Part shown: in pieces, positions 4,243 through 61,706 of the stretch
Layout: the number at the start of each line of letters is the position of its first letter
How positions within the stretch are numbered: position 1 is the stretch's first letter
Assembly: GCA_028714475.1 (NCBI GenBank)
Contig: JAQTNC010000005.1
Location: forward strand, 6,857 to 70,856
From: Patescibacteria group bacterium
GTDB taxonomy: Bacteria; Patescibacteriota; Patescibacteriia; SG8-24
DNA length: 64,000 nucleotides
Direction of reading: 5' to 3'
Program-made: the position numbers and the translations under genes
The notes under the pieces: model-generated
The model's database searches: none
What the model saw: only the letters and a program-made list of their open reading frames with translations
What the model was told of the DNA's origin: nothing

Positions 4243-4348
4243 CACTACGGCGGGGGCGCGATGATACAGGGCATCCCCAAAACACCTTAATTGACACCCC
4301 GCCAATGGTTATCTACGCTGAATTTATAACCTCATCTGACCCACCCGC

Positions 4349-46622: not shown

Positions 46623-47309
46623 CTACTCCGCCGGCTCCGTCGGCGCTGGGACTTTCGCCCCGTTGCCAGCCGGCGCCGGCGAGAGGGTCACATCAATCTC
46701 GTCAGCCGTGAAGGAGGCGGCGCGAAGGATATCCTCCTTGGCTACCATAACCGTGAGCGTCTGTCCCGCCCGAAGGTCAGACAACTTGATCTCCGTTTGA
46801 CGGGTGCGGCTCGGCGGCGTCGGTCGCACAGGGGTTTTCCCGGCAGCCAAGTCAGCCGCGTATTGGCGTTGCGCCGCGTTGAATTCCTCGGCCGCCTTGG
46901 CGAGCTCTGCCGACGTCAGCGCCTCGGCCCTGTACAGCTTGGTGTCAGGGCCGACCTTGATTGTGCGTTGGGTGGGAGCCTGCTCGTCAAGCGGATTGCG
47001 GACGGTTTGGTTGGCCTCGATGACCAAAGAATCCGTGCCCACGGTCACGACCTTTCCGGCGAGTCGATGAATGGCCACGTTTTCAGGAAAGATGCGGGAA
47101 TCCGCAATCTTTTTCTGGGCCGACGCATAACCGGCTGCGAAACCGCCGTCAGTGGGATGGGTGCTGCCGACGGCGTAACCAGTGGCGTAAGCCACGGCCA
47201 CAACCACGGCCGCCGCGAGCCACGGCACGTATTTCCTTTTGAGGTGCGGCTTCAGGCCGGCCAAAGCCTTGCCGACGACCGGGGGAATATTTTTTTCTTC
47301 CATAGGCAT
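46623..47309 (-). CDS. hypothetical membrane-anchored Ala/Pro-rich protein
   Basis: Start at an internal Met (MPMEEKNIPP). N-terminal anchor LAAAVVVAVAYATGYAVG, then an extracytoplasmic low-complexity region. No domain recognised. Confidence 0.4.
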   Translation of the reverse strand: MPMEEKNIPPVVGKALAGLKPHLKRKYVPWLAAAVVVAVAYATGYAVGSTHPTDGGFAAGYASAQKKIADSRIFPENVAIHRLAGKVVTVGTDSLVIEANQTVRNPLDEQAPTQRTIKVGPDTKLYRAEALTSAELAKAAEEFNAAQRQYAADLAAGKTPVRPTPPSRTRQTEIKLSDLRAGQTLTVMVAKEDILRAASFTADEIDVTLSPAPAGNGAKVPAPTEPAE

Positions 47310-47448
47310 ATGGTTAATGTCGGTGGTATCATAGCATATTTTTGCCCAAAAAATCATGTCTAAATCCTTGGCTTGTGGACAAGCCGGACAGGGTCGCTAA
47401 CTGGGCGGTTTTGTGTTATAGTTAAAGCGCATTAATATTGAATACGAT

Positions 47449-48351
47449 ATGTCCTTAACGGAAGGGCCAAAAGAGCCAAAAACGGAAAAAACGAGCCGTT
47501 TGGTCAGGCGGATTCACGCCCTCATGCTCGCCGTGGCGGTTTTTGCGTTGTCCGCATTGGCGGGCGGCTCCGTGACGAAGGTCGTGCTGGCTGCCCAGTA
47601 CCAGGAGCCAAGCGGCCAGCCGCCGACCGGCAACATCCCGGTCACGGTCTGGAACGCCTTGGATCTGCCGACCGGCACCGAGGCGCAGGCGGCGGCGATT
47701 TTCGTGAGCGGCGGCGGTCCGCCACCTGCCCGCGTCGGCCTACAGGTCGGCACCAAGGATTTGGACATGGGGGCGAGCGCCGACGGCCAGAACCTGGTAT
47801 ACGGCGTGACTGATTTCGACAAGATGAGTGCCGGCGATCGGCTGATGCTGCTCCAGACGGTGAAGGACAACACCTACACCGACCGGATGGTCGTGAACAA
47901 GACCGGCGACCTTTACGCTTCGGGAGCCATTGTTTCCGGAGGCAACCTCAACACCGACAGCTGTTTCGGTCCGACTTTCCAGGGACTCACGACGACGACC
48001 TACACCGGCAACCTCAACAGCGGAACCCAGGGGTATTATGCCGCTTCGACGGTGTGCGCGGAGATTTTCGGCGCGGGTGCGCACGTTTGTTCCTCCGCGG
48101 AGATGATGAGTAGCCTGAAATGCTCCACGGCTTTTCCGCCGCACAAGATTCGCGACGCGGCCTTGAGCGGCTCCGACGGCTGGATTCAGGATGGCCCGCC
48201 GGGCTACACCGCGCCGGCCCAGGATTGCATGGGTTGGCGGTCCAACGCGCCTGGCAACCTCGGTCGCATGTGGCGTTTTGACGCCGCGACCGGCGGACAG
48301 GGTTACCTAACGACTTGTAATCAGGCGGTCCGTTTTGCCTGTTGCCGCTGA
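47449..48351 (+). CDS. secreted/anchored protein carrying the Cys-rich C-terminal domain shared with the 990-aa fibre protein
   Basis: N-terminal anchor IHALMLAVAVFALSALAGGSV. The C-terminal roughly 110 aa (GPPGYTAPAQDCMGWRSNAPGNLGRMWRFDAATGGQGYLTTCNQAVRFACCR) aligns with the C-terminus of 48368..51346 (GAPGFTKPASNDCAGWTSEAANTYGDFWEFQGDNGGTGYATSCNAKYPIACCR). Confidence 0.55.
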   Translation: MSLTEGPKEPKTEKTSRLVRRIHALMLAVAVFALSALAGGSVTKVVLAAQYQEPSGQPPTGNIPVTVWNALDLPTGTEAQAAAIFVSGGGPPPARVGLQVGTKDLDMGASADGQNLVYGVTDFDKMSAGDRLMLLQTVKDNTYTDRMVVNKTGDLYASGAIVSGGNLNTDSCFGPTFQGLTTTTYTGNLNSGTQGYYAASTVCAEIFGAGAHVCSSAEMMSSLKCSTAFPPHKIRDAALSGSDGWIQDGPPGYTAPAQDCMGWRSNAPGNLGRMWRFDAATGGQGYLTTCNQAVRFACCR

Positions 48352-48367
48352 CGACGGCATTGGCCAT

Positions 48368-51346
48368 ATGCATATGAACCAGAGGTCAGCTACCAAGAGG
48401 ACGATTCTTGCCGCGGCCACGGCATTCATCGCGACGTTCGCGGGAACGACGGCGGCGGTTGCCGCAGTGTGTCCGGACCACAACCCCAACTACTCCATCA
48501 TGTGCACCGGCGGCAATTCCTGGTGCGGCAACACCTGTCAGTCGGAACCGGTTTGCGTCGGCGAAAAATCCAAGGTTGACTGTTCGGGTTGCGGTTGCGT
48601 CTGTCCTGACGCACGGCCGAACGACTGCACGGGCGTGAACGGCCTGTGTCAGGAGACCAACGCCACCTGTGCCGCCCTGCACAAGCAGTCCGTCTGCGAC
48701 GCGACGCCGGGAGCCACCATCCAGCGCTGCGGCAACTGCGTTTCCGGCTATTCGCTCTGCGCGCCGGACACCTGTGTCGTCTCCACCAACCCCGCCTGTC
48801 CGCCGCCGGCCATCTGGGATCCCTGTGCCGGAACGTGTTCAGAAAAATATGTCCTCGCCAATCCGACGCCGGCTCAGTCGCCGCAATCGGTCAACCTGAA
48901 GATGAGCGGCAACATGTCGCTCGTCGGCGGCGACGTCTACCTGGCGAGCAACAAGGCGCTCCGTTTGGACGGCGCCGGACCGACCCTCCTCAACATCGGC
49001 AACTGGGATCTGGCCGGAACATCGGGGAACGTCATGGTTTGGGGCAGTCTGGGCGCCAACGATGGGCTGTTTGCCAACGCCATCTCGACCTTGCCGACGC
49101 CTGTCGGTCAGACGTTCGCCGACCTGCCGCCGAACAACACCGTCTGGACCGACAACATCTGCTTCAACGGCGGCACGAGATGTCGCAACTCCTGGCCGAT
49201 TGGCTTGCCGGAAATCGCCATTGCCGGCCAGACCGTGCGTTATACGGGTTCGGACTGGGTGGCGACATCCTTCCTGACCAACACGGGCACGGCCATCGGC
49301 ATCGGCACGGATACGCCCGGCTGGCCGCTCGACGTGCGCGTGAACGCGAGCACGGCCATGCTGAACCTGGACGACCAACTCGGCACGCTCTGGACCGGCG
49401 TCCGCCTGGCGCGCGTGACCGGCGTTGACCTCAACAAGGAGAAGTGGTTCGTGGGCATGAACAACGCCAATGAGCGGTTGAGCTTCATCCGCGACGGCGT
49501 AGCAACCTCCATGACGCTCGACACCAACGGCCGCGTCGGCATTGGCATCGCCGCGCCATCACAGCTCCTGAACGTCTACGGTGGAAACATCCGGGCGGAA
49601 CGGGGCAATGACGGCCTGAACGTGATGTATCAGCTGGCGAGCGAAACCGTCGGCAAAAGCTGGAGCTTCGGGATGGACGTCGAGGCGGCGGGGGTCGGCG
49701 ATTTCCGCCTCTCGCGCGGCAACTCCCTGAACAGCACCTATCTCTCGGTGTTGGCTGATTCCGGCCGCGTCGGCCTGAAGAACGCCGATCCCGGATTCGC
49801 TTTGGATGTCTCTGCCCAGCCGCCGGCGGATACCACGGCCATCGTTCGGATCGACCAGGGGAGCGGCGCGCCCAAGGTCTGGACCGGCTATCGAATGGAT
49901 CGCGTCCGCGGCGCGGAGCAATGGTTCCTCGGCATGAACGACACGGATGAAACGCTGCGCATTCGGTCTTCGAGCAGCGATGACCGCGTCGTCATTGACT
50001 CGGCGAACGGCAACGTCGGCATCGGCGACAGTACGCCGGCGGCGCTTTTGACGGTCGGCAACAACGAGCGGTTCACGGTTTCTTCGGCAGGCGATGTCGC
50101 GGCGGTCGGCAATTTGGCCGTCGGCGGCGGCCAGCTGACAACCACCTCGGTCGGCACGGCCAACGTCTTCAACACCAGTGCCACGGGGCTGAACATCGGC
50201 GGTGCCGCCTCGAACATGTCCATCGGACCGGGTGGCGCCACCGCCACGTCCATCAACCTCGCGGGCGGCGATACGGCCACCGGCTGCACCTTGAACGGCG
50301 CAACCGGAGATTTGGCCTGCTCGGGCAACATCACCGGCGGCAACGTTGGCAACCAGGGCTATTGGTCGCGCTCCGGCACCACCCTTCAGCCGAAAACCGC
50401 GGGTGACAACATCACCACCTCCGGCAACATCTCGACCACCGGCACCGGCGCTTTGAATATCGCCGGCAACGCGATTTTAGGGGACGGCCCGGGCCACAAC
50501 GTTATTTTCGGCGCCGGCGAAGCCATCCTGCAGGGTGGGCACCTGAACTTCGACTACAATACCTTTTATATTGACGCCGTGAACAACCGCTTGGGCTTCG
50601 GCACCAACGTCCCGGGCTACAAGATCGACGTCAGCTCGTCCTCCGACACCTCGATGATTCGTCTGGATAACGATACCGGCGCGTCGCGGCTGTGGACCGG
50701 CTTGCGGATGGATCGCGTCCGCGGCACGGAGAAATGGTTTCTCGGCATGAATGCCACTGACGAGAGTTTCCGGTTGCGTCGCGACGGCGGGACTGACGAC
50801 GTAATCGTGGATTCGACCGGCAAGGTCGGCATTGGCAGCACCCCATCATACAAGCTGGACGTGGCCGGCACGGTTCGGTCCACCGGCATTCGCATGGAAA
50901 CCGGCGCGGTCAACAACTACGTGCTCACGAGCGACGTGAACGGTCAGGCAAGCTGGCGGCCCATGCAGTACGCCGACGAATGCACGGGCGGCAAGTTCCA
51001 TCACCTGACGGCCGGAACCTACGACGGCAACGACCTCGGCAACTACAAGAACGTCGACAACGTCTGCGACGCCGGGAACCACATCTGCACCCCGGACGAG
51101 ATTCTGCGCACGGTGTACTGTTCGGCGTCCGGCACGCTGCCGGCCAGCGGTAACGCATGGGTCGCTAACGGCGCGCCGGGTTTCACCAAGCCAGCCTCCA
51201 ACGACTGCGCCGGCTGGACATCCGAAGCGGCCAACACCTACGGTGACTTCTGGGAATTCCAGGGCGACAACGGCGGCACGGGTTATGCCACCAGCTGCAA
51301 CGCCAAATACCCGATTGCGTGTTGTCGCGCGTACTGGTGGCTGTGA
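48368..51346 (+). CDS. giant secreted fibre/adhesin-like protein (about 990 aa): Cys-rich N-terminal module, about 130-aa repeat modules, Cys-rich C-terminal lectin-like domain
   Basis: Signal peptide (TILAAATAFIATFAGTTAAVAA). About 20 Cys in residues 30-180. Repeated modules WTGxRLxRVxGxExWFxGMNxxDExxRxRxxGxxxxVxDSxGxVGIG (four or more copies). C-terminal domain ends ...IACCRAYWWL. The start is the internal Met of the track ORF. Confidence 0.7.
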   Translation: MHMNQRSATKRTILAAATAFIATFAGTTAAVAAVCPDHNPNYSIMCTGGNSWCGNTCQSEPVCVGEKSKVDCSGCGCVCPDARPNDCTGVNGLCQETNATCAALHKQSVCDATPGATIQRCGNCVSGYSLCAPDTCVVSTNPACPPPAIWDPCAGTCSEKYVLANPTPAQSPQSVNLKMSGNMSLVGGDVYLASNKALRLDGAGPTLLNIGNWDLAGTSGNVMVWGSLGANDGLFANAISTLPTPVGQTFADLPPNNTVWTDNICFNGGTRCRNSWPIGLPEIAIAGQTVRYTGSDWVATSFLTNTGTAIGIGTDTPGWPLDVRVNASTAMLNLDDQLGTLWTGVRLARVTGVDLNKEKWFVGMNNANERLSFIRDGVATSMTLDTNGRVGIGIAAPSQLLNVYGGNIRAERGNDGLNVMYQLASETVGKSWSFGMDVEAAGVGDFRLSRGNSLNSTYLSVLADSGRVGLKNADPGFALDVSAQPPADTTAIVRIDQGSGAPKVWTGYRMDRVRGAEQWFLGMNDTDETLRIRSSSSDDRVVIDSANGNVGIGDSTPAALLTVGNNERFTVSSAGDVAAVGNLAVGGGQLTTTSVGTANVFNTSATGLNIGGAASNMSIGPGGATATSINLAGGDTATGCTLNGATGDLACSGNITGGNVGNQGYWSRSGTTLQPKTAGDNITTSGNISTTGTGALNIAGNAILGDGPGHNVIFGAGEAILQGGHLNFDYNTFYIDAVNNRLGFGTNVPGYKIDVSSSSDTSMIRLDNDTGASRLWTGLRMDRVRGTEKWFLGMNATDESFRLRRDGGTDDVIVDSTGKVGIGSTPSYKLDVAGTVRSTGIRMETGAVNNYVLTSDVNGQASWRPMQYADECTGGKFHHLTAGTYDGNDLGNYKNVDNVCDAGNHICTPDEILRTVYCSASGTLPASGNAWVANGAPGFTKPASNDCAGWTSEAANTYGDFWEFQGDNGGTGYATSCNAKYPIACCRAYWWL

Positions 51347-51395: not shown

Positions 51396-54300
51396 ATGAA
51401 CAGGCACAACAACTTCGCGGCGCGGCTCGGGGATTGGTCGATTTCCCTGGTCGGTCCGGCGGTCATCGTAGGCGTTTTAGGTTGGATGGTCGGCGTGCAA
51501 CCGGTGCTCGCGGTTGACAAGTGCAAGGATTTTGGCCTGCCGTCCTTTAAATGTCCCGCGACCGCGACCCACGACGTCTGCGGAACGTCCCCGTTTTTCT
51601 ACTGTTTTTCCGGGGCTGATGACGCCTGCACCGGCGGCACTCCGGCACCGAACTACATTTTTGACTGTGAGAGCTGCTCCTGCAAATGTGATACCGCCAA
51701 TTTTCCCTGCGCCGGCTGTGCGGCCACGTCCGTGACGCCGGGGGGGAACTGTTCCCCGCCCAACAACGGTAAATACGCGAACGGCTGTCCGGAATCCTGC
51801 ACCTGTCCTTCCGGCACGACTAGGTGCATCAGCACCAACACCTGCGTCACCAATCAGTCCTGCCCGACCGGCATGACCTTCGACCCCTGCCTTCCTGGCT
51901 GCGTCACCCCGTACATCCTGCGCAGCCCAGCCACCGTGCAGGCCAACGCTTTCATTAATATAGACGGCAACGTCAAGACCGGCGGCGACCTGTATATGGC
52001 GGACGGCAAGGCCGTGCGTCTGGACAGCGCTGGGGCGACGGTGCTCAACATCGGCAATTGGGGCGGCGGCTCGTTCGCGGTCCGCGCTTTCGGTGCCTTG
52101 ACCGCTGACGGACGGATCGGTTCCGGAGCCCCTTCGCCGGCGTATCGGTTGGACATCGTGAGTGGCACCGACACCCAGGACATCCTTAATCTCAACGATC
52201 AGGACGGCAACGCCGCCAGCCGCGTCTGGACCGGCACCCGCTTGGCGCGTGAGTCCACGGAAAAGTGGTACATCGGCATGAACGCCACTTCTGACGATTT
52301 GCTCATGTCACGTAACGGCGGCGGCGTCGGCAACACCTCAATCTTCGTGAGCAACGCGACTGGCGATGTCGGTGTCGGCACGACCAACCCGACCGGCACT
52401 CTCTCCGTCGGCAACGGCGCCGTGACCCTTTTCTCGGTGGATGGCGCGACCGGCGACGTGGTGACGGCCGGCAACCTGGCCGTGAACGGCGGCAACCTCA
52501 CGACGACCGCCGGAATCTTCAACATCGCCGGCACGGCCTCGACCGTGAACCTCGGTGGCGGCGCGGCAAGCACCGGCTGTACCTTGGATGCCGACGGCAA
52601 TTTGGTCTGTGCCGGCACCATTACCTCATCCGGTTCCGGCGGCGGCGGCGCGGTCGGCTATTGGCAGCGCGGCGGCACGACCCTTTCGCCGGCGACAACC
52701 GACGATACCATCAGTACCGGCGGCAACATCATGACCACGGGCTCGGGGAGCATCACCTCGAACGGAAACCTGACGGTCAAGGGCGTCACCGTCTTGGGCG
52801 ACAATCCGGCGACGGACACGCTGACCCTGAACCTGCTGGACGTTCTCGTGCCGGGTGGCTTGAGTATCGACGCCGGCACGCTTTACGTTGATCCGGTCAA
52901 CAATCGCGTCGGCATCAGCCAAACCATCCCCGGTTACCGGTTCGACGTCAGCGCGGACAACGATTCGACCGCCATCGTACGCATTAATGACGACCGGGAC
53001 GGCAACACCGCCACGCGGCTTTGGACCGGCACGACGCTGTCGCGAGAAAGCCTGGAAAAATGGTTCCTCGGCATGAACGGCACCGATGACGACTTCACGC
53101 TCAACCGCAACGGCGGCGGGAGCGCGCTGACCGTGCTTAACAGCAACGGCTACGTTGGCATCGGCACGGACGACCCCGCGTCCCGTCTCGACGTCAATGG
53201 AACGGTCACATCGACCGGCATCGCGCTGGCTGGCGACTACACGCAGACCTCGGGCAATTTCACCTTCTCCGGCGGTGGCACGTTCTCGACCAGCGCGGCG
53301 AACACCACCCTCGGCACGACCAACATCGTGGCTGGCAAGACCATTACCCTCGGCGCCGCGGCCGGCGACCCGGCTGGCGCGAACGGCGCGATGTACTACA
53401 ACACCACCACCAACAACTTTCGCTGTTTCCAGGGCGGTGGCTGGACGGACTGTTATTCCGACGGCGCGGCAGTCGGGAGCGGCGTGAACGGGCAGGTCGT
53501 CTTCTGGACCGGCACGCGGTCCGTGGCCGGCGACAACGGTTTCTTCTGGGACAACATCACCAAACGCCTCGGCCTCGGCACGGTTAGCCCCGCATACCCC
53601 CTGGACATCCGCAACGACGGCGCCACGGGCACGACCGAGATGCGCCTCAATAACGACAACGCGACGAGGCTCTGGACCGGTACGGCGCTGTCGCGCCAGT
53701 CGAGCGAGAAATGGTTCATCGGCATGAACAGTAGCAACGATGACTTAAGCATCACGAGGAACGGCGATACCACCTCGATGCTGTCCGTCAGCAACGCGAC
53801 CGGCGACGTGACCGTGACGAACAACCTGGCCGTGAACGGCGGCACCATCTCCACGACGGCCGCAACGTTCAACCTGGCGCCGTCGGCAACGACCGTGAAC
53901 ATCGGCGGCGGCAGCGGCTCCACCGGCTGTTCCGTGGACGTGAACGGCAACCTCATCTGTTCAGGAACCATTTCGTCTGGCGGCGGCGGCGCGGTCGGCT
54001 ATTGGCAACGCGCTGGGACGACGCTCTCGCCGGCGACGGCGGGCGACGTCATCGCCACTTCCGGTGACATCCAGACGACGGGGGCGGGCAACATCCAGAC
54101 GACGGGCACCGGCGGCATCACGTCTAACGGCAACCTCTCCGTCAAGGGCAATACGACCTTGGGCGACGCTTTCGGCGACACCTTGACCATTAGCGGCCAG
54201 GCCGTCAACATCCCGAGCGGCCTCCTTTTCGGCGGCAACGCGCTGTTTTTGAGCAACAACACCAAGCGCGTCGCCATCGGCGCCGCTTCGGCCAGCTACC

Positions 54301-57140
54301 GTCTCGACATCGTCTCGGCCAACGACTCGCAAGTCATCATGCGGCTTAATGACGACAAGAACTACCCGACGTCACGGCTCTATACCGGCACGACTCTTTC
54401 GAGGGCCGGCACCGAGAAGTGGTTCCTCGGCATGAACTCCACGGACGACGACTTCACACTCAACCGCAACGCCGGTGCCAGCTCATCGTTCACCGTCCTA
54501 AACAGCAACGGCAACGTCGGCATCGGCACGGACAACCCTGCCCAGCCGCTCGACGTGAACGGCACGGCTCAAGTGGCCGGTTTCAAGATGCCGACCGGTG
54601 CGGCGGCCGGAAAGGTACTGATGTCGGACGCCAACGGCGTCGGCACTTGGCAACCCGTGGGGGTTGGTTCTGGTGTCGTGGCTGGTTCCGGCACGGCCGG
54701 ACAGGTGACATTCTGGGACGGTTCTTCTTCCATCACCGGCGACAACGCCCTTTACTGGGACAACGCCAGTAAACAGCTCGGCGTCGGCACCAACAGTCTC
54801 GTCGCCAGGCTGACCGTGGATGCGAGCGCCGGTGGCGAGGGCTTGAGCATCGCCACTTCAGCCGCGAGCAGTCCGCTCGACATCACTTCCGGCGGGCTGT
54901 CTGTCTTCAACGTTTCTCCGAGCGGCGGCGTGACGGCCGCGGAATCAGTGACCGCACCCTACGTCGGTGGCGCTTGGGTGGACGGCTCTTACCTAAGCGT
55001 CACGGGCGACGGCACGGTCGCCCGCATCACGACCGGGCACAATGATGCGGCGGAATTCTCCCAAATCATTTATAATTCAGCGAACGGCAGTGGCATCTCG
55101 GCTTACTCTAACGGCGGGACGGCGGCTTCTTTCGGCACCGGTAACGGCGTCGGGGGCGGCGCCTTGCCTCTCCGGTTGAGCACGAATTCCGGCAACGGCA
55201 TGAAGGAAATCTTGCGTCTGACGCGCGGCATATTCGGTGCTGGCGCCAATGGTGACGGCGGCAAGATCGTGTTTGAGAACGAGAAGTCCGACCAGACTTA
55301 CGGCGAGGTGGCAGGCATCGCTGGCATCACCGCTAACGCGAACCCCCTTCAGTGGCGCGGCGCGATGGCTTTCTACACGGTTCAAGACGGCGTTGAGCGC
55401 GAACGCGTCCGCATCGCGGAAAGCGGGGCGGTCGGCATCAATACAGATTCGCCGACCGAGATGCTGGAGGTGAATGGCGGCTACATCAAGTCCAACTGGG
55501 GTTTCTGCATCAACGCATCCTGCATCACCAGCTGGCCGACGGGCGGCGGCGGAACGGTCACGGGCAGCGGGACGCCCAGCTACGTGCCGAAATGGACGGG
55601 CGCCTCGGCCTTGTCGAACTCCCTGATTTATGATACCGGCTCTAATGTCGGCATCAGCGTCACCTCGCCCCAGAGCAAATTGGACGTGCAGGGAAATTTC
55701 CGGGTCGGTGGCGGCGATGGCATCCTTAACGTCGAAGCCCGAGGCTCCACGTACGGCTCCGAGACGCTGGCCATGCAGACGACCATCGACAACCGCAAGA
55801 TCAGCGACGGCTTTCCGTATGGGGGAGATGACCGGTACGTTCTCGCCCTGCAGCCCGACTATGGCCGCGTTGGCATCGGCACGGCGAGTCCGCGCAACAA
55901 GCTGGACGTGTGGGGCGGGGAAATCAACGTTACCGGCGCCGACATCAACGGCACCGCAGTCATTACTTCGAACGCCGGCACCGCCTATTACGGGAACAAC
56001 GCCTACGACAACGGCATCGCCATCGATCCCAGCGGCAATGTCGGCATCGGCGTGGCGCCGGGAGCCAAACTGCAGGTGCAGGGCGCCGGTGGCGTCAACG
56101 TTGATATGGTGGTCAACGGCCGCATCATGACCGGCGACGCCGGGGCTTCGGGCGGCATGTGGATCGATTCGGGCATGACCCGGTTCGTGGGCGACGACGG
56201 GGCCGGGGGCGTGGGCATCTGGAACAACGGTTGGCAGTTAGGGGTTTACCCCACTTACGTTAACGTTGCCCAGGGCCTGTCGATTTGGGGCTACACCGAC
56301 CTAACCGGGTTTACCGATTGGGGCGATGCTACGGTGACAGGATACCTGACGGTCAATGGCGGACCCGGCAACGCGGCCTTTAGTGTCGCGTCTCCGGCCG
56401 ATGTCACCATGCAGGCCATCCGCGCCGACGGCACCGGCAACTATACAGCCTTGTTCAACAATAGTGGTGCCACGAATGTCGCGACGATTGGGGTCAACAG
56501 CACCAACGGTTCCGCAGCCGCTTTCTCTACGGGAAATGCGGCTAAACCCGCAGTTACCATCTCCGCATCGGACAATAATTCGCAGGCCCTGCATGTCCAT
56601 CAAGGTCGCATTGGCATTATGGTCGATTCGCCTTCTTACCCCTTGGACATAGCCGGATCAGCGCACGCCACTGGTAGCTGGTTGACGTCAGATGTCCGTT
56701 GGAAGAAGGACGTACGGACCATCGATGACGCCCTCGAAAAGGTCAATGAGTTGCGCGGCGTCACGTTCTACTGGAAGACCGTCGAGTATCCGAACAAGGG
56801 ATTTGACGATCGGCAACACCTGGGCCTGATTGCCCAGGAGGTCGAGCCGGTTCTGCCGCAGGTCGTCAGCACCGACAATCAGGGCTATAAGTCGGTCGCG
56901 TATGATACGCTGGCCGCCCTGCTCGTCGAGGCCGTCAAGGAAGTCGACCAACAGGCAGTCAAGCTGGCTCCCGATGGCAGCGTGGTGCTGACCGGTGATT
57001 TGCAGGCCAACGAAAACCGATGGGGCGCGGCCAGCAACTGGATAGCCTGCCCCGAAAAAGGCGAGTGCGCCTGCCCGAACGGCTCCTACGTGACGCAGAT
57101 AAAGGATCGTGGCACTTGGATTCAATGTCATAAGCTCTAG
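51396..57140 (+). CDS. giant secreted fibre-like protein (1914 aa) with a Cys-rich N-terminal module, many repeat modules and a C-terminal phage tail-fibre S74 intramolecular-chaperone domain
   Basis: N-terminal anchor/signal. A Cys-rich module homologous to those of 48368 and 58818. Repeats RLWTGTxLSRESxEKWFLGMNxTDDDFTLNRNGG...NSNGxVGIGTDxP. A C-terminal SDVRWKKDVRTIDDALEKVNELRGVTFYWK...QHLGLIAQEVEPVLPQVV..GYKSVAYDTLAALLVEAVKE matches the Peptidase_S74 chaperone-of-endosialidase domain. Confidence 0.75.
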   Translation: MNRHNNFAARLGDWSISLVGPAVIVGVLGWMVGVQPVLAVDKCKDFGLPSFKCPATATHDVCGTSPFFYCFSGADDACTGGTPAPNYIFDCESCSCKCDTANFPCAGCAATSVTPGGNCSPPNNGKYANGCPESCTCPSGTTRCISTNTCVTNQSCPTGMTFDPCLPGCVTPYILRSPATVQANAFINIDGNVKTGGDLYMADGKAVRLDSAGATVLNIGNWGGGSFAVRAFGALTADGRIGSGAPSPAYRLDIVSGTDTQDILNLNDQDGNAASRVWTGTRLARESTEKWYIGMNATSDDLLMSRNGGGVGNTSIFVSNATGDVGVGTTNPTGTLSVGNGAVTLFSVDGATGDVVTAGNLAVNGGNLTTTAGIFNIAGTASTVNLGGGAASTGCTLDADGNLVCAGTITSSGSGGGGAVGYWQRGGTTLSPATTDDTISTGGNIMTTGSGSITSNGNLTVKGVTVLGDNPATDTLTLNLLDVLVPGGLSIDAGTLYVDPVNNRVGISQTIPGYRFDVSADNDSTAIVRINDDRDGNTATRLWTGTTLSRESLEKWFLGMNGTDDDFTLNRNGGGSALTVLNSNGYVGIGTDDPASRLDVNGTVTSTGIALAGDYTQTSGNFTFSGGGTFSTSAANTTLGTTNIVAGKTITLGAAAGDPAGANGAMYYNTTTNNFRCFQGGGWTDCYSDGAAVGSGVNGQVVFWTGTRSVAGDNGFFWDNITKRLGLGTVSPAYPLDIRNDGATGTTEMRLNNDNATRLWTGTALSRQSSEKWFIGMNSSNDDLSITRNGDTTSMLSVSNATGDVTVTNNLAVNGGTISTTAATFNLAPSATTVNIGGGSGSTGCSVDVNGNLICSGTISSGGGGAVGYWQRAGTTLSPATAGDVIATSGDIQTTGAGNIQTTGTGGITSNGNLSVKGNTTLGDAFGDTLTISGQAVNIPSGLLFGGNALFLSNNTKRVAIGAASASYRLDIVSANDSQVIMRLNDDKNYPTSRLYTGTTLSRAGTEKWFLGMNSTDDDFTLNRNAGASSSFTVLNSNGNVGIGTDNPAQPLDVNGTAQVAGFKMPTGAAAGKVLMSDANGVGTWQPVGVGSGVVAGSGTAGQVTFWDGSSSITGDNALYWDNASKQLGVGTNSLVARLTVDASAGGEGLSIATSAASSPLDITSGGLSVFNVSPSGGVTAAESVTAPYVGGAWVDGSYLSVTGDGTVARITTGHNDAAEFSQIIYNSANGSGISAYSNGGTAASFGTGNGVGGGALPLRLSTNSGNGMKEILRLTRGIFGAGANGDGGKIVFENEKSDQTYGEVAGIAGITANANPLQWRGAMAFYTVQDGVERERVRIAESGAVGINTDSPTEMLEVNGGYIKSNWGFCINASCITSWPTGGGGTVTGSGTPSYVPKWTGASALSNSLIYDTGSNVGISVTSPQSKLDVQGNFRVGGGDGILNVEARGSTYGSETLAMQTTIDNRKISDGFPYGGDDRYVLALQPDYGRVGIGTASPRNKLDVWGGEINVTGADINGTAVITSNAGTAYYGNNAYDNGIAIDPSGNVGIGVAPGAKLQVQGAGGVNVDMVVNGRIMTGDAGASGGMWIDSGMTRFVGDDGAGGVGIWNNGWQLGVYPTYVNVAQGLSIWGYTDLTGFTDWGDATVTGYLTVNGGPGNAAFSVASPADVTMQAIRADGTGNYTALFNNSGATNVATIGVNSTNGSAAAFSTGNAAKPAVTISASDNNSQALHVHQGRIGIMVDSPSYPLDIAGSAHATGSWLTSDVRWKKDVRTIDDALEKVNELRGVTFYWKTVEYPNKGFDDRQHLGLIAQEVEPVLPQVVSTDNQGYKSVAYDTLAALLVEAVKEVDQQAVKLAPDGSVVLTGDLQANENRWGAASNWIACPEKGECACPNGSYVTQIKDRGTWIQCHKL

Positions 57141-57145
57141 AGCAA

Positions 57146-57180
57146 AAAGCCGTCTGGCCAAGCCAGACGGCTTTTTTAGC
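57146..57180 (+). terminator. rho-independent terminator AAAAAGCCGTCTGGCCAAGCCAGACGGCTTTTTT after the 1914-aa gene
   Basis: Perfect 11-bp stem, a 4-nt loop and a T-run starting 6 bp after the stop. Confidence 0.8.
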
Positions 57181-57345
57181 GCTGAAGTACTGGAGTACTG
57201 AAGAGCTGAAGAAATTGCTGGAATCTTTTTTTGCCAAGTTTTTCCTCTTCAGCACTTCAGTACTTCTGCACTCCTGCACTGACTTCTCCAGCACCCCGGC
57301 ACTTCCCAACTCCGCCCTTTTCGGCTATATTTATTGCTGGACCAT

Positions 57346-58779
57346 ATGCTAAAATTATTCGATAGTTTAGCCAAGAAAAAGCGCGTGTTCAAGCCGCTTC
57401 AGGCCGGACGGGTGACGATGTATAACTGCGGGCCGACGGTGTACGACTACGTCCATATCGGCAACCTGCGGTCTTTCCTGCTGGCCGACCTCGTGCGCCG
57501 CTTCCTTGATCACCGCGGTTTTGAGGTGCGGCAAGTGATGAACATCACCGACGTCGGCCACATGCTGGCGGACGCGGATGTCGGCGAGGACAAGCTCGAG
57601 GTTTCGGCCGCCAAGGCCGGCAAGACGCCCGCCGAAGTGGCCAGGTTCTTCACCGAGGCTTTTTTTCGTGACATTGATCGGCTCGGCGTGCGGCGCGCCG
57701 CCATGTATCCGCGGGCGAGCGAGCACGTGCCGGAGATGATCGCCATGATCGGCCGGCTCCTGGAGAAGGGCTGCGCCTACAAGGTTCAGGAAACCGACGG
57801 CGGCGCCAGCATATATTTTGACGTCTCGACTTTTCCGGAATACGGCCGGCTTTCCGGCAACGTCATCGAGGGGCTGAATCCCGGCGCCCGCGTTGACGTG
57901 CGCTCCGAGAAGAAACATCCGGCTGATTTCGCCCTCTGGATCCACAATCCGAAGCACCTCATGCAATGGGAAACGCCGTGGGGCAAAGGCTATCCCGGCT
58001 GGCACATCGAGTGCTCGGCCATGTCCACCAAATACCTGGGTGACACCATCGACATCCATACCGGCGGCGAGGACAACAAGTTTCCTCATCACGAGTGCGA
58101 GATCGCGCAGGCTGAGTGCGCCACTGGCCAGAAGTTCGTCCGTTATTGGCTGCACGGCACCCACCTTCTGGTGGATGGCGAGAAGATGTCAAAATCCAAA
58201 GGCAACTTTTATACGCTCGACGACCTCACGGCCAAAGGTTACGAGCCGCGCCATGTCCGCTACCTCCTCCTCTCCTCGCATTATCGGGCGCCGCTCAATT
58301 TCACCTTGGCGGGTCTCGATGCGGCCAAGTCCGCCTTGGCCCGTCTCGACAATTTCGCGGATCTGTTGCGGGATTATGCGCCGAAGAAAAACGGCCGGAG
58401 CGATCGGGTCGGGATGACGGCGATGAAAGGCCTGAATCAGGCCCTGGATGACGATCTGAACGTGGCCGAAGCGCTGGCCGCGGCCTTTGAGCATGTCCAC
58501 GCGATCAATGAGCGCTTGGCTTCCGGCGAACTGACGGCCCGCGAAAAGGCCGGCGCCGAGGCTTTTATGAAGGCCCTAGGCGATGTTTTCGGTTTCGTTT
58601 TCGGCCGCGCCGCCGATGAGGCCGACGTGCCAGCCTCGGTCCGGGAACTCATGGAGAAACGCGAAACGGCGCGCCGTGAAAAGCGTTTCGTCGAATCGGA
58701 CCGCGTGCGCGACGAGATCAAGGCGCTCGGCTGGATGGTCGAGGATACGCCGGAAGGCTGTCGCGTCAAGCGGCTGTAA
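57346..58779 (+). CDS. cysS: cysteine--tRNA ligase
   Basis: [20 protein letters not shown] (HIGH-type motif HIGN). The Zn-binding Cys residues (C at NCGPT, HIECSAM). KMSKS at [10 protein letters not shown]. The alternative start at 57334 is in frame. Confidence 0.9.
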
Positions 58780-58817: not shown

Positions 58818-59897
58818 ATGATCAATAGTCGCCAACTGATCGCCGCCAGTGCCGTGACCCTCGCGCTGCTTGTGGCCGCGCCGGCGTTGGCCAAGGACCG
58901 CTGTCGCGATTGGGGACAGCCGTCGTTCAAGTGTCCGACCACGGCCACGCGCGCGGTCTGCGGCAAGGAGCCTAACTTGTACTGCTTTGACGATCGCGGC
59001 AACCCGAACGCCGACCTTTGTTCCGGCGTCACTCCCGCGCCTCGCTTCAAGTTCGATTGCGAGACCTGCACCTGTCGGTGCGACGAGGAAAAATATCCCT
59101 GTGACGGTTGTTCTTCCGCCAAGAACGCCTTAGGCGCCACGTGCAACGGCGTCGTCGGCGGCGCCTACGTTGACCGTTGCGGCACCTGCGGCTGCGGCGC
59201 CGGCACGGCCATCTGCGTATCCACGAATACCTGCGTGACGATTGTGGACTGCCCGACTGGTTTCGGTTTCGAACCGTGTTCGGCCGCCTGTATCCCTGGT
59301 TTCGTCACCCCGACCGCGACTGTTGAGCCGCCAGTGCCGCCGTCAGGAGAAACGTCGACCGCGCCGAGTTCGGCAGCTGACCAGATTGCCGCCGCGCCTG
59401 CCGCGCCAGCCGACGGCCGTCCGGAAGAGCTTCCGGCTGGCGAGATGGGGGAGCGGCAGGCTGAAACGGCGGACGGTTCGGCTTTCGGTTGGACATTGGT
59501 CCTCCTCGCGGCCTTCGTGGCTGGCCTCGGGTTAGGCAGTTATTTCTCCGGCCGTTTCGGCCGTCCCGGGCGCGTCGAAACCCCGTTTCACGGCGTCGTG
59601 GAAAAAATCAGCGGCCGCGAATTGAGCCTGACCGTTGGGCAAGGGCGTGATCGTCGACGTCTCTCGGTGAGCGTCGGGCCAGCCGCGGAAATCAACGCCT
59701 TGACCCTGCCGGAAGAAGGCGAAGGCCGTCTTGAACGCCATCATATACCGCTTGCGTGCCTGCGGCCTCATGACACGGTGGAGGTCGCGATGACGCAAAC
59801 CAAGCCCGACAAGAAGCTGATTGCCGACTCGGTCGCGCTCATGACCACCGACGCGACGCTGGCCAGAAGGCGGGCGTGCCTGAAGGAAGATGCGTAG
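58818..59897 (+). CDS. single-pass membrane protein with an extracytoplasmic Cys-rich module homologous to the N-termini of the two giant fibre proteins, plus a cytoplasmic C-terminal domain
   Basis: Signal peptide. DRCRDWGQPSFKCPTTATRAVCGKEPNLYCF...FDCETCTCRCD aligns with DKCKDFGLPSFKCPATATHDVCGTSPFFYCF...FDCESCSCKCD of 51396. An Ala/Pro/Ser linker, TM FGWTLVLLAAFVAGLGLGSYF, then about 120 cytoplasmic residues. Confidence 0.55.
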   Translation: MINSRQLIAASAVTLALLVAAPALAKDRCRDWGQPSFKCPTTATRAVCGKEPNLYCFDDRGNPNADLCSGVTPAPRFKFDCETCTCRCDEEKYPCDGCSSAKNALGATCNGVVGGAYVDRCGTCGCGAGTAICVSTNTCVTIVDCPTGFGFEPCSAACIPGFVTPTATVEPPVPPSGETSTAPSSAADQIAAAPAAPADGRPEELPAGEMGERQAETADGSAFGWTLVLLAAFVAGLGLGSYFSGRFGRPGRVETPFHGVVEKISGRELSLTVGQGRDRRRLSVSVGPAAEINALTLPEEGEGRLERHHIPLACLRPHDTVEVAMTQTKPDKKLIADSVALMTTDATLARRRACLKEDA

Positions 59898-59976
59898 ATT
59901 CGTAGTTGCGGGGACACAATAATGCGGAGGGCTTTCGCTCTCCGCATCTTTGAATCTTCGAATTATTGCGTCATGC

Positions 59977-60933
59977 CTACAGCCATTTCCGGCTCTTGAG
60001 GTAACCCATTGTCGCGACCATGACCAAGAAGACGATGCCGAGCATGAACCAGAAGTCGCCCGGCACCCCCAGGAGCGGCATATTCTCCGCGCGCATCGAG
60101 AAGATGGCGGCGGCGAGATTCATCGGAAAGACGATGAAGGCCAGGGCCGTCAGCGTCTTGGTCGCCTGGCCGGTCTCATAGGTGACGAGCGAAAGGTAGG
60201 ACTCGTACACGGCGTCAATCGTGTTGCGGTCGTTATCGAGGAAATCCCATATCTCCTGCGTGTGGCCGACCAGGTCCTCGTAATAGACGTGCAGATCCTG
60301 GAAATGGAGGATGCGCGGCGCGACGGCGATGAATTTCTCCAGGACGTGCTTGTGGGCCTGCATGATGCGCCGGAAGTCCACGATGTTGGACTTGACCCGC
60401 AGGATTTCCTTGACTGAGCTGTTCTGGGCGTCAGTGAACATGCGCGACTCCAGGGTGTTGATGTCGTTGGAGACGTGCGTGAGCATCGGAAAGCAGCCGA
60501 TGTACAGCTGGTTTAGCATGGCATGCAACCAATCGGCCGGACGTTCCACCTCCTGCGCCATCGTCACGCTGCGATCGCCGCGGAACAACTCGGCCATGCT
60601 CTGGAGCGGCGGCAGGACGCCGAAATGGTTGGTGACGATGAAATTTGGGCCGATGAAGATGTCCAGTTCCGTTGATCGGATGGCTCGCTTGTCCCGATCA
60701 AAATACGGGAACAGCATGACCATGAACAGGTACTGTCCGCGTTCCAGGAGCTTCGGGCGCTGGTAAGGCGGCAAACAGTCCCGCAGGTCCATTTCGAGGA
60801 AGAACGGGAAAAGCTCCTTGAGCTTGGCGCTGGCCTCGGCCGACGGCTTCCTGACGTCCACCCAGGTCATTTCCGGATGGCGATAGACGTCGAGGAGCGG
60901 CTGACCGTCGTATTTTGGCATTTTTTCGTGCAT
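59977..60933 (-). CDS. CorA-family divalent cation transporter homologue lacking the canonical GMN motif
   Basis: The C-terminus TLTALAFIVFPMNLAAAIFSMRAENMPLLGV...LKSRKWL aligns with the CorA pore region (LT..ATIF.PLTFIAGIYGMNFE.MPEL...KKKKWL). SMR occupies the GMN position. Confidence 0.6.
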   Translation of the reverse strand: MHEKMPKYDGQPLLDVYRHPEMTWVDVRKPSAEASAKLKELFPFFLEMDLRDCLPPYQRPKLLERGQYLFMVMLFPYFDRDKRAIRSTELDIFIGPNFIVTNHFGVLPPLQSMAELFRGDRSVTMAQEVERPADWLHAMLNQLYIGCFPMLTHVSNDINTLESRMFTDAQNSSVKEILRVKSNIVDFRRIMQAHKHVLEKFIAVAPRILHFQDLHVYYEDLVGHTQEIWDFLDNDRNTIDAVYESYLSLVTYETGQATKTLTALAFIVFPMNLAAAIFSMRAENMPLLGVPGDFWFMLGIVFLVMVATMGYLKSRKWL

Positions 60934-61202: not shown

Positions 61203-61706
61203 ATGAATTTTGCGGAAAAACCGGAAGCGCAACCGGCCGCCGCGCCGCCTGAAACCCAGGCGGAGCAGTTGGCGTCCCCGGAAAGCGGCCCGCGGCCGGA
61301 AGGGACACCGGCCCAGGAGAGAAAACAGCCCGTTCCCGTCGCGCCGATGCCGCAAATCGTCCTGCCGGACGTCGCCCCAAGCGCGGCCGCGCCGGCCAAG
61401 GACCCACAACTCATGAGGGTTGAGCGCGTGCTTGAGGACGGCTTGCTCGAGGCCTATTTGGCCATGCCGGCCAAGGAGCGCGCGCGCTTCAGGGCCGTCG
61501 GCGAGGAAACGGCCGCCAAGATTAACGTCCTGATCGAGCAGTCAAAGGCCACGGCCAAGGCCGTGTTGAAGCTCATCCGCGACTGGCTGAGGATGATTCC
61601 CGGCGTCAACCGTTTTTTCCTGGAACAGGAAGCGAAGCTGAAGACTGACCGCGTCATGCTCCTCAACGAACAGCGCCGCCGTGACAAGGAAGGGGGAACC
61701 GTATGA
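61203..61706 (+). CDS. hypothetical Pro/Ala-rich protein, translationally coupled (ATGA) to the downstream ATPase
   Basis: Start at internal Met MNFAEKPEAQP. Low-complexity N-terminus, helical C-terminus. The stop overlaps the start of the 61703 ORF. Confidence 0.35.
   Translation: MNFAEKPEAQPAAAPPETQAEQLASPESGPRPEGTPAQERKQPVPVAPMPQIVLPDVAPSAAAPAKDPQLMRVERVLEDGLLEAYLAMPAKERARFRAVGEETAAKINVLIEQSKATAKAVLKLIRDWLRMIPGVNRFFLEQEAKLKTDRVMLLNEQRRRDKEGGTV

Follow-up and report, generated by a model that had tools for sequence, protein, structure and literature searches.

The open reading frame (ORF) at positions 58818-59897 (+) of the window (the whole stretch of DNA analysed, 64,000 nucleotides of a Patescibacteria group bacterium) is very probably a real, lineage-specific fusion of two neighbouring genes and not a conserved component, since relatives with the same fibre locus have a complete short fibre and a separate small membrane protein, here called TM-β. 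An in-frame loss of roughly 0.5-0.7 kb in the window genome would have joined the two adjacent genes, attaching the signal peptide and N-terminal module (N-module) of the first to the transmembrane (TM) helix and β-domain of the second. With little more than even confidence, we also lean towards the full explanation, in which the fusion product has an inverted topology and serves as a membrane-tethered base stub.

In the ORF list of the window, the target gene started with ATG and encoded 359 aa; its product was identical to the NCBI entry 'MAG: hypothetical protein PHT12_02675 [Patescibacteria group bacterium]'. The first-pass annotation had described the protein as a fibre N-module, a single TM helix and a C-terminal domain, an architecture confirmed by the ORF, hydropathy and homology, and had placed the gene right after cysS, itself behind the giant fibre genes, which is indeed where it lies, separated from cysS by 38 bp (Table 1). 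The signal peptide carried Pro at -4 and A-L-A at -3 to -1, ending in ALA before KD, a pattern from which cleavage is predicted. Residues 26-172 held 20 of the 22 Cys residues. Apart from the signal peptide, residues 223-244 were the sole hydrophobic segment of the protein, with an acidic stretch before them and RFGRPGR after, and Met210 in the spacer may be the ancestral start codon of the downstream gene.

Table 1. Positions of features of the fusion gene and of its surroundings in the window.
Feature	Position	Strand	Evidence or remark
1003-aa fibre, divergent N-module	48335..51346	+	46% identical to the 1026-aa protein of L004
1914-aa fibre, N-module and C-terminal Peptidase_S74 intramolecular chaperone	51396..57140	+	PF13884, E 2.8e-17
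Intrinsic terminator immediately 3' of the 1914-aa fibre gene	57144..57177	+	10-bp perfect GC-rich stem GCCGTCTGGC/GCCAGACGGC, 3-nt loop, T6 run
Promoter-like site TTCCCA-17-TATATT immediately 5' of cysS	57303..57331	+	consensus scan, pattern match only
cysS	57334..58779	+	tRNA-synt_1e E 3.6e-103, DALR_2, CysS_C (Pfam)
Target: Sec-type signal peptide, residues 1-25 (MINSRQLIAASAVTLALLVAAPALA then KD)	58818..58892	+	hydropathy peak 2.27 at residues 7-25
Target: Cys-rich fibre N-module, residues 26-172 (147 aa)	58893..59333	+	homology and Cys count
Target: Ala/Pro/Glu-rich spacer, residues 173-222, holding the fusion junction	59334..59483	+	composition
Target: TM helix, residues 223-244 (FGWTLVLLAAFVAGLGLGSYFS), GxxxG (G236, G240)	59484..59549	+	hydropathy 1.95
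Target: C-terminal domain, residues 245-359 (115 aa), and stop codon	59550..59897	+	OB-like β-barrel then basic helix; predicted cytoplasmic
GC-rich hairpin between target and convergent corA, probable bidirectional terminator	59922..59947		fold energy
corA, convergent, ending the syntenic slot	59977..60933	-	Pfam CorA, E 9.9e-40

The fibre locus, flanked by the dnaK operon and cysS, lay on the chromosome and kept its synteny in different genomes. The listed TTG of its 1003-aa fibre is probably not the true start, which would be an ATG some 30 nt further downstream; its 1914-aa fibre matched PHROG tail-fibre families at up to E 8.6e-26. Given the terminator after the 1914-aa fibre gene (fold energy of the region 57141-57260, -52.5 kcal/mol, z -6.4) and the promoter-like site before cysS, the target is predicted to share a transcript with cysS but not with the giant fibre genes; the independent expression that the first-pass annotation had named as counting against a tether or receptor is thus what these elements predict. 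Rfam gave no T-box in the cysS leader, only a chance miRNA-like hairpin. Downstream of the target, the region with the probable bidirectional terminator (59895-59976) had a fold energy of -34.5 kcal/mol (z -5.4).

Within the window, tblastn matched the target to the N-terminus of the 1914-aa fibre (E 3e-38, 46% identity in 156 aa) and gave a weaker match to that of the 1003-aa fibre (E 0.001). By sequence comparison, the sharing of the module between target and fibres is far beyond chance; the Cys framework was preserved in a three-way alignment, and the locus contains three copies of the module. Searched exhaustively, a set of 1.84 billion representative proteins yielded 34 module-bearing clusters including the target, every match running through the module, and in phmmer comparisons the target matched the 33 other clusters at E 3e-49 to 2e-5, always via residues ~10-180. 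A core of C-x-C-x-C-D-x-x-x-[YF]-P-C-x-G-C was common to the family including the target, whose module had all of the near-invariant Cys columns and deviated from the consensus once, where the near-invariant Thr of CDT was replaced by Glu (CDEEKYPC). The module was without counterpart in Pfam, NCBIfam, PHROGs and PDB, and its AlphaFold2 (AF2) model, with pLDDT 84-95 in the C-terminal half, had no significant match in a fold search. In a word-index protein search the full-length target matched itself only, and queries with the module or the C-half alone returned no match, missing even the query itself. One family member was named 'tail fiber domain-containing protein [Candidatus Uhrbacteria bacterium]' (MBN1585539.1); in the literature on Patescibacteria fibres and DUF5666 we found nothing on the module, these fibres or TM-β proteins.

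Proteins of this family combine a constant N-module with variable shafts and tips: the module is normally followed by a neck, a long Gly/Thr/Ser-rich shaft and then a knob, an S74 domain or a Cys-rich tip. In the target, the alignment stopped at about residue 172, and the family neck (GD.Y...GKA[IV]R[VI]D..G...LN.GN[WY]G) and everything beyond it were absent; tblastn with the neck and knob of P0002/P0004 left no trace in any frame of 58818-59897, and the knob HMM did not match the target ORF. A C-terminal TM helix was found in only 2 of the 34 module-bearing clusters; P0030 is a second and independent membrane-tethered N-module. The middle region of P0030 had been suspected to be the same β-domain from the string 'RLSV..AAE..GRLE..HH.P', a candidate rejected on BLASTP (E 0.42) and hhalign (0.1%). 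The fibres themselves had no C-terminal TM anchor, and LPXTG-like motifs, sought by regular expression in the two fibres, the target and the 300-aa protein, were absent. Since fibres that differ widely in shaft and tip have only the module in common, and are themselves devoid of anchor motifs, the module most likely forms their cell-proximal attachment or assembly end. The target module was 51-55% identical to the short-fibre modules of relatives (58-60% between those of L004 and L006/L008) and grouped with the L004, L006 and L008 short-fibre modules in a neighbour-joining tree, apart from the big-fibre modules, a placement that marks it as the ortholog of the relatives' short-fibre N-module.

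In the loci of the closest syntenic relatives, L004, L006/L007 and L008, the slot between cysS and corA, the latter on the opposite strand, held two overlapping genes, a short N-module fibre and a TM-β protein. The first encoded a secreted protein with signal peptide, Cys-rich N-module, neck, shaft and C-terminal knob, and the second a bitopic protein of 210-218 aa with a GxxxG-containing TM helix, a Pro/Ala linker and an acidic β-domain; the start of the second overlapped the stop of the first by 28 nt in L004, L006 and L008. The same slot in the window genome was occupied by one ORF, and the fibre neck, shaft and knob were gone, while the flanking genes were conserved with relatives (identities to L004 and L006 of 68-75% for cysS and 60-63% for corA, and 73% for a VirD4-like gene). 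No second protein combining the N-module with a TM-β unit was found among the 1.84 billion representative proteins. A search with a five-sequence alignment recovered 3 loci in genome contigs and none in metagenome contigs, and a single-protein search for related loci in genome contigs found none. Mapping of the deletion junction against relatives at the DNA level gave no position, as the sequences were too divergent.

Homology of the C-half to the TM-β proteins was supported by several comparisons. BLASTP matched it to the 218-aa protein of L006 (E 5e-5), hhalign aligned it with the relatives' TM-β proteins at 78-90% probability (E 1.8e-5 to 1.7e-6), and the TM-β family profile covered residues 245-359 over 95 columns (78% probability, E 1.8e-5). 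In a shuffle control, the real score of 36.9 compared with 10.6±2.0 and a maximum of 22.9 for the shuffled sequences (n=200; z ~13), of which 0/200 reached the real score, and reciprocal HMM and phmmer searches made the target C-half and the TM-β proteins each other's top match. HMMER support was marginal (E 0.003-0.024 among the 672 ORFs of the window), and BLASTP against the 210-aa protein of L004 gave E 0.14 in the wrong register, so the homology is clear only through L006 and the profiles. The target's TM helix aligned with that of the relatives' proteins, and its G236 and G240 with G38 and G42, the GxxxG pair that is invariant in the TM-β family alignment. β-domain identity was 29-34% between target and relatives, against 27% between L004 and L006. 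Members of the TM-β family (210 aa in L004, 218 aa in L006, 222 and 191 aa in L010, 209 aa in L011) belonged to no Pfam family. Fibre and TM-β genes were again paired in L010 and L011, and a TM-β gene lay directly 3' of every knob-type fibre for which downstream sequence was available (L004, L006/7, L008, L010 and L011); unlike the big fibres, these knob-type fibres lacked the S74 intramolecular chaperone. As for paralogy with a further ORF of the window, 46623-47357(-), hhalign gave 17% but the HMM an E-value of 1.3e-4, an ambiguous outcome that was not used as evidence.

Topology was assigned from hydropathy and the positive-inside rule. The target had 1 K/R and 4 D/E before its TM helix and 3 K/R and 1 D/E after it, whereas its three closest relatives had 4 K/R before the helix and 0-1 after; the part behind the helix had a pI of 9.2 in the target and 4.3-5.1 in relatives. 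Because both the flank charge bias and the pI are reversed in this way, the TM-β unit of the target is probably inverted with respect to the closest relatives. An ancestral β-domain outside the cell is a secure prediction for those three relatives only, as the TM-β proteins of L010 and L011 had an ambiguous charge bias. We predict the target to be a type I membrane protein whose signal peptide is cleaved and whose TM helix acts as a stop-transfer sequence. The disulfide-rich fibre-base module would then stand outside the cell on a flexible spacer of ~50 residues, and the OB-like β-barrel, now basic, would lie in the cytoplasm, across the membrane from where it is predicted to be in the closest relatives.

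The first-pass annotation had proposed a cytoplasmic domain of about 120 aa and of unknown fold; a domain of nearly that length is present and cytoplasmic by prediction, but it models as an OB-like β-barrel, with a resemblance at the level of fold class only. Its single-sequence AF2 model (pLDDT 76, pTM 0.69) comprised a six-strand barrel followed by a helix, and the best Foldseek matches were cold-shock (CSD), S1 and RPA OB folds, all at E >= 3e-3 and with TM-scores of up to 0.69 on the target. The sole Pfam hint was DUF5666 (PF18914), at 13.3 bits and E 0.1 against a gathering threshold of 27 bits, and this family matched 0/6 relatives. A PDB sequence search with the target gave no match at E <= 1, and Pfam and NCBIfam returned no kinase, HTH, cyclase, anti-sigma or other signalling family. 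The C-half was basic and Arg-rich, and its GC3 of 0.70, against 0.77-0.85 in neighbouring genes, constituted a weaker codon-position GC signal; relaxed constraint in a GC-rich genome could equally explain both properties.

An artefact or mis-call, meaning either the assembly collapse of two genes or the production of two proteins, a truncated secreted module and a TM-β protein started at Met210, is very unlikely. Met210 does lie 13 residues before the TM helix, near the start of the relatives' TM-β proteins, and the threefold occurrence of the N-module matters as MAG assemblies can collapse repeats. However, no stop codon separates the two halves, no remnant of neck or knob was found in any frame, there is no convincing Shine-Dalgarno sequence before Met210, and the identical 359-aa product was present in the MAG and on contigs of two separate, independently assembled sequencing runs, with cysS upstream and corA downstream in both. 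A product from Met210 would, moreover, keep the acidic N-flank and basic C-flank and with them the same orientation. A more serious alternative, although one that we consider doubtful, is a loss-of-function remnant, in which a deletion destroyed the short fibre and incidentally fused its 5' leftover to the downstream gene, leaving a product that, whether made or not, has no selected role and whose β-domain is stranded on the wrong side of the membrane. The TM-β protein may ordinarily help to assemble the short fibre from outside the cytoplasm, much as phage tail-fibre chaperones with genes just 3' of the fibre gene do; in that case it would have become useless once the fibre body was lost. Consistent with a remnant, TM-β genes follow every knob-type fibre with downstream sequence, and such fibres lack an S74 chaperone. 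The uniqueness of the target among all representatives searched, the loss of the whole fibre body and the Arg-rich C-half with its weaker codon-position signature also fit a remnant. Against it, all 359 codons are open and neither half is frameshifted relative to relatives, every framework Cys is kept, and both halves diverge no more than relatives do (54-55% against 58-60% for the module, and the β-domain identities given above). The TM flanks and the charge of the whole domain also appear to have changed coherently, as would fit a new topology, and the C-domain still yields a confident single-sequence fold.

The functional proposals of the first-pass annotation, an anchor for the fibres or a receptor, are weakened by the evidence above. 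A signalling receptor, whose outer N-module would sense fibre status or a ligand and whose cytoplasmic domain would relay it, is highly improbable. It would suit the bitopic architecture, with an ectodomain outside and a folded domain inside, and the basic, OB-like character of the latter, as OB-like folds can bind nucleic acids or proteins. Yet the idea is without support given the OB-like fold, the descent of the domain from one that prediction places outside the cell in the closest relatives and the lack of any signalling match in Pfam, NCBIfam or PDB sequences; nor is there an adjacent regulator gene, the neighbours being cysS and corA. Anchoring is possible but not a general mechanism, because a tethered module is missing from relatives whose big fibres are equivalent; in its favour are the absence of LPXTG motifs and of TM anchors from the fibres themselves and the second tethered module, P0030. 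Under the fusion and base-stub explanation, the target would be a fibre-less, membrane-tethered base that might offer the N-modules of the secreted fibres a docking or nucleation site by module-module contact, its TM helices associating via GxxxG; we put this docking role forward tentatively, as possible rather than probable. The fusion modestly hints that fibre and TM-β protein work together. A bolder interpretation, which we regard as unlikely, is that the target is a natural Rosetta stone for an unrecognised anchoring or assembly system, made up of the N-module of secreted trimeric fibres and a GxxxG TM-β protein, which became covalent in this lineage as the β-barrel moved across the membrane and was re-adapted (pI 4.5 to 9.2). 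If so, the protein would be a direct link between fibre and cytoplasm.

Phage fibres are one of the nearest known parallels. K1F endosialidase and T5 pb1 are reportedly examples of phage fibres or tailspikes with a C-terminal intramolecular chaperone (Peptidase_S74), and the neighbouring 1914-aa fibre resembles these in its PF13884 and PHROG tail-fibre matches, whereas the target lacks both shaft and S74 domain and has no match in Pfam or PHROGs. The principle of a constant attachment end and a variable binding end in phage fibres is mirrored by the constant N-module and variable shafts and tips of the patescibacterial family, but the N-module differs in being Sec-secreted and Cys-rich, and its locus is chromosomal. 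With that family the target shares the signal peptide and a module with the full Cys framework, and departs from it in that a spacer, TM helix and β-barrel replace everything from the neck onward. With the separate TM-β proteins of relatives it shares the GxxxG TM helix, the β-domain and the position before corA; it differs in that the unit is fused behind a secreted part of 222 residues instead of standing alone with an N-terminal TM helix, and in that the charge bias is reversed and the Pro-rich linker and acidic tail are lost. Unlike sortase-anchored surface proteins, it has no LPXTG-like sorting signal. Genes for tail-fibre assembly chaperones of the Tfa/gp38 type sit just downstream of phage fibre genes, and the TM-β gene is likewise immediately 3' of a fibre gene, but TM-β proteins resemble no known chaperone in sequence or fold. 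In Rosetta-stone fusions adjacent genes are joined in one polypeptide, as the relatives' two adjacent, translationally coupled genes are in the target; fusion of overlapping neighbours can also come from a simple deletion, without implying physical interaction.

Patescibacteria (CPR) live attached to other cells, and to our knowledge little has been established on how they build and hold surface fibres. By itself the target is a single-lineage oddity, and more is gained from the comparison to which it led: this defines a rare, uncharacterised fibre family with a disulfide-rich constant module and no known anchor motif, and reveals that genes for small TM-β proteins lie time and again directly beside those of the fibres. 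The fusion thereby offers a concrete pair for testing, the N-module against the TM-β protein. Should the topology really be inverted, the target would also show how, in nature, a domain can adapt anew to the opposite membrane side once two genes have fused.

The ORF following cysS was as the first-pass annotation had described it, encoding from an ATG start a protein of 359 aa with a single TM helix, after a gap of 38 bp. An identical protein is listed at NCBI as 'MAG: hypothetical protein PHT12_02675 [Patescibacteria group bacterium]', and two sequencing runs, assembled independently, each yielded the identical protein between an upstream cysS fragment and a downstream corA. The window was chromosomal, with hrcA-grpE-dnaK-dnaJ upstream and corA downstream in a genome of ~60% GC. 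Anatomy was read from hydropathy and composition (see table). The positive-inside rule predicts an extracellular Cys-rich module and an intracellular C-terminal domain, in agreement with an external location of the disulfide-rich part. The protein is strongly supported as a predicted type I membrane protein, with a spacer of ~50 residues presenting the fibre-base module.

Features of the 359-aa protein and its locus (window positions unless given as residues)
Feature	Position	Setting or composition
244-aa protein	46623-47357 (-)	Divergent at head of fibre locus
300-aa protein	47449-48351 (+)	Opens fibre operon
1003-aa fibre	48335-51346 (+)	
Intrinsic terminator	57144-57177	Four bases after stop codon of 1914-aa fibre gene; 10-bp perfect GC-rich stem, T6 tail
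Second hairpin, long and imperfect	57189-57260	In cysS leader
Promoter-like -35/-10 pair	57303-57331	Just before cysS
cysS	57334-58779	
359-aa protein	58818-59897 (+)	
Strong hairpin	59922-59947	Between 359-aa protein gene and convergent corA
Small conserved gene	61395-61694 (+)	Downstream of corA
VirD4/TraG-like coupling ATPase	61859-64000 (+)	Downstream of corA
Signal peptide	Residues 1-25	Ends at ALA|KD
Cys-rich module	Residues 26-172	20/22 Cys
Spacer	Residues 173-222	Ala/Pro/Glu-rich
Sole TM segment	Residues 223-244	Acidic residues before, RFGRPGR after
C-terminal domain	Residues 245-359	115 aa

The earlier claim that this protein and the fibres have the same Cys-rich module was borne out. 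In tblastn searches of the window the module matched the N-terminus of the 1914-aa fibre (46% identity, E = 3e-38) and, more weakly, the 1003-aa protein (E = 0.001), a sequence similarity well beyond chance. An exhaustive phmmer search of 1.84 billion representative proteins found 34 module proteins of 193-3434 aa, with every match running through residues ~10-180 of the 359-aa protein. Their layout was an N-terminal signal peptide, the module and a conserved neck, then widely differing shafts and tips; one was titled 'tail fiber domain-containing protein [Candidatus Uhrbacteria bacterium]'. The 1914-aa fibre contained a Peptidase_S74 intramolecular chaperone domain and its C-terminal part matched phage tail-fibre PHROG families, which, going by known S74 fibres, implies a trimer. 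No LPXTG motif was found in the fibres. The module had no match in Pfam, NCBIfam, PHROG or PDB sequences, and its AF2 model (33 sequences) was confident only in the C-terminal half (pLDDT 84-95), and no structure matched its fold significantly; the best of the non-significant matches were elongated disulfide-rich repeats of TNFR-CRD, EGF and furin types. In the short fibre P0004 (L006 4661-5917) and its L008 counterpart (4321-5829) the module stopped at CGHC, its last third replaced by a Pro/Ser/Gln-rich linker, so this best-modelled part is dispensable in some members.

A second hydrophobic segment occurred in only two of the 34 module proteins, the 359-aa protein and P0030 (297 aa; L003 621-1514), a second, independent membrane-tethered module. 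In P0030 a signal peptide led into the first two-thirds of the module; ~120 unrelated residues came next, then a TM helix at the C-terminus with a strongly basic tail. Both proteins had a CD.EK[FY]PC variant of the CDTANYPC conserved elsewhere. The 300-aa protein lacked the module. Its C-terminal Cys-containing domain (…GPPGYT.P..DC.GW…FACC[RK]), compared by eye, was shared with the C-terminal end of the 1003-aa fibre and with the ends of the module proteins P0014, P0016, P0020 and P0023, and appears to be a tip domain that recurs. Mechanical ORF calling set the start of the 1003-aa fibre at a TTG (48335) that probably lies too far upstream; the residues MHMNQRSATKR… and the hydrophobic signal peptide after them point to an ATG some 30-36 nt further on.

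The origin of the protein was apparent from synteny. The closest module match, P0002, lay in a locus (L004) ordered as ~300-aa protein, ~1000-aa fibre, large S74 fibre, cysS, P0002 (327 aa), 210-aa protein and corA on the opposite strand; L006/L007 (P0004, 418 aa, then a 218-aa protein) and L008 had the same gene order. Identity to the window was 68-75% for cysS, 60-63% for corA, 53% for the 300-aa protein and 46% for the ~1000-aa fibre, and a 166-aa gene and the VirD4-like ATPase (73%) were also kept downstream; these flanking genes are clearly orthologous. In all three relatives the gene after cysS was a complete short fibre (module, neck, short shaft, C-terminal knob), and 28 nt ahead of its stop codon lay the start of a gene encoding a TM helix, Pro/Ala linker, β-rich domain and acidic tail (hereafter the TM-β protein). 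The window had one ORF instead of two in this slot, with a cysS-corA interval of 1197 bp compared to 1677 bp (L004) and 1936 bp (L006). The N-half of the 359-aa protein was 54-55% identical to the short-fibre modules and grouped with them in an NJ tree, big-fibre modules forming a separate clade, which marks it by sequence as their ortholog; neither the neck nor the knob had left a coding remnant in any frame of the ORF.

The C-half matched the L006 TM-β protein by BLASTP (E = 5e-5) and, with its TM helix, the TM-β protein by hhalign (90% probability, E = 1.7e-6), as did the β-domain alone against six relatives (78%, E = 1.8e-5). The real hhalign score of 36.9 compared to 10.6±2.0 (maximum 22.9) for 200 shuffles and 11.6 for the reversed sequence. 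HMMER support was weaker (E = 0.003-0.024 among 672 window ORFs), though top hits were reciprocal, and the GxxxG invariant in the TM-β family was kept as G236/G240. Alignment therefore identifies the C-half as homologous to the TM-β protein, and a fusion chimera of two neighbouring genes is strongly supported. Fusion is the derived condition, since the rest of the family consists of fibres and the genes are separate in each of the three close relatives. The 244-aa protein combined a TM helix at its N-terminus with a split β-domain and had clear homologs in the same position in L009 (8072-8785 (-), Uhrbacteria) and L012 (6306-6974 (-)); it matched the TM-β family by HMM (E = 1.3e-4) but by hhalign at 17% only, and may represent a distant, free-standing paralog of the C-half. 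L007 (JBAIWZ010000015.1) and L008 (JBAIXY010000031.1) were ~6-kb contigs from MAGs labelled Acutalibacteraceae and Vicinamibacterales, and are probably mis-binned, as they carry Patescibacteria-type cysS, short fibre and TM-β locus. The window ATPase was 73% identical to an 843-aa protein of L006 with DUF87, T4SS-DNA_transf and TrwB hits; minus-strand ORFs listed near 61395-64000 are probably spurious.

In L004, L006 and L008, four Lys/Arg before the TM helix, none or one after, and a Pro-rich, acidic post-TM part (pI 4.3-4.6) predict an N-in, C-out TM-β protein with its β-domain outside the cell; charge bias was ambiguous in the more distant L010 and L011. In the chimera, one Lys/Arg and four Asp/Glu preceded the helix, three Arg followed, and the post-TM domain had a pI of 9.2 and no Pro-rich linker. 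Because a signal peptide and ectodomain come first, the helix has to serve as a stop-transfer sequence, so that the β-domain is predicted to have moved to the cytoplasm, its sequence changing coherently with the move. Alternatively, the Arg enrichment could stem from drift in a GC-rich genome; the C-half had a weaker codon-position GC pattern. The first-pass annotation had described a roughly 120-aa cytoplasmic domain of unknown fold: at 115 aa its cytoplasmic placement holds by prediction, and structure prediction, a check it had suggested, now points to a fold class. The best single-sequence AF2 model (pLDDT 76, pTM 0.69; five models ranged from pLDDT 47 to 76) had six strands, then a C-terminal helix, and Foldseek against PDB returned OB folds of cold-shock, S1, RPA and exosome-cap types (best E = 3.3e-3, none reaching 1e-3); the domain thus models as an OB-like small β-barrel. 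The sole Pfam hint, DUF5666 (13.3 bits against a cut-off of 27), matched none of the relatives. No signalling domain was detectable, leaving the suggested signalling receptor with no positive evidence.

The terminator after the 1914-aa fibre gene, in a region folding with z -6.4 and overlooked by the pattern scan, together with the promoter-like pair before cysS and the hairpin before corA, predicts a cysS-chimera transcription unit separate from the giant fibre genes. Short fibre genes of relatives were equally tightly coupled to cysS, overlapping by 4 bp in L004 and separated by 9 bp in L006. An Rfam search of the cysS leader gave nothing beyond a miRNA-like match ascribed to chance, with neither a T-box nor any other known family. 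In each of the five loci examined (window, L004, L006, L010, L012) cysS was linked to the unusually Cys-rich fibre genes, and it was often coupled in translation with the short fibre gene, a striking pairing given a module of 13.6% Cys, though it may simply be inherited synteny.

The fibre/TM-β pairing extended further. L010 encoded a 191-aa TM-β protein, the knob-type fibre P0007 and a 222-aa TM-β protein, all upstream of cysS, and L011 the knob-type fibre P0024, then a 209-aa TM-β protein (HMM E = 4.7e-17, 1e-11 and 2e-5 for the three TM-β genes). Wherever downstream sequence was available, a TM-β gene came next after a knob-type fibre; L012 had only two non-knob fibres before cysS, and neither the pair nor corA. 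This conserved adjacency supports a functional link, compatible with a route via the module (anchoring) or via the knob (assembly factor). Phages encode chaperones downstream of fibre genes, an analogue for a TM-β protein acting through the knob.

The module would be the constant end of fibres otherwise lacking any anchor, and the tethered copy would most plausibly be a fibre-less base stub associating with modules of secreted fibres, perhaps helped by GxxxG-mediated association of TM helices. As a general role, the anchor proposed earlier is opposed by the uniqueness of the chimera and by relatives without a tethered module; docking in this lineage is the favoured but tentative proposal, to which we give a fairly low probability. 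Its main rival, about as probable, makes the protein a by-product left when a deletion did away with the short fibre; against pure decay stand an uninterrupted ORF, a complete Cys framework, divergence no greater than among the relatives themselves, coherent charge re-adaptation and a C-domain that still yields a confident fold.

Neither the module nor the TM-β protein falls in a described family, and our literature search found no account of either. The 359-aa protein is a single-lineage variant in an uncharacterised, phage-fibre-like surface system, belonging with surface fibre/adhesin systems and gene-fusion chimeras. Nature may here have moved a domain to the other side of the membrane, but the main value of the protein is that it marks the fibres and the TM-β protein as candidate partners, a pairing open to test.
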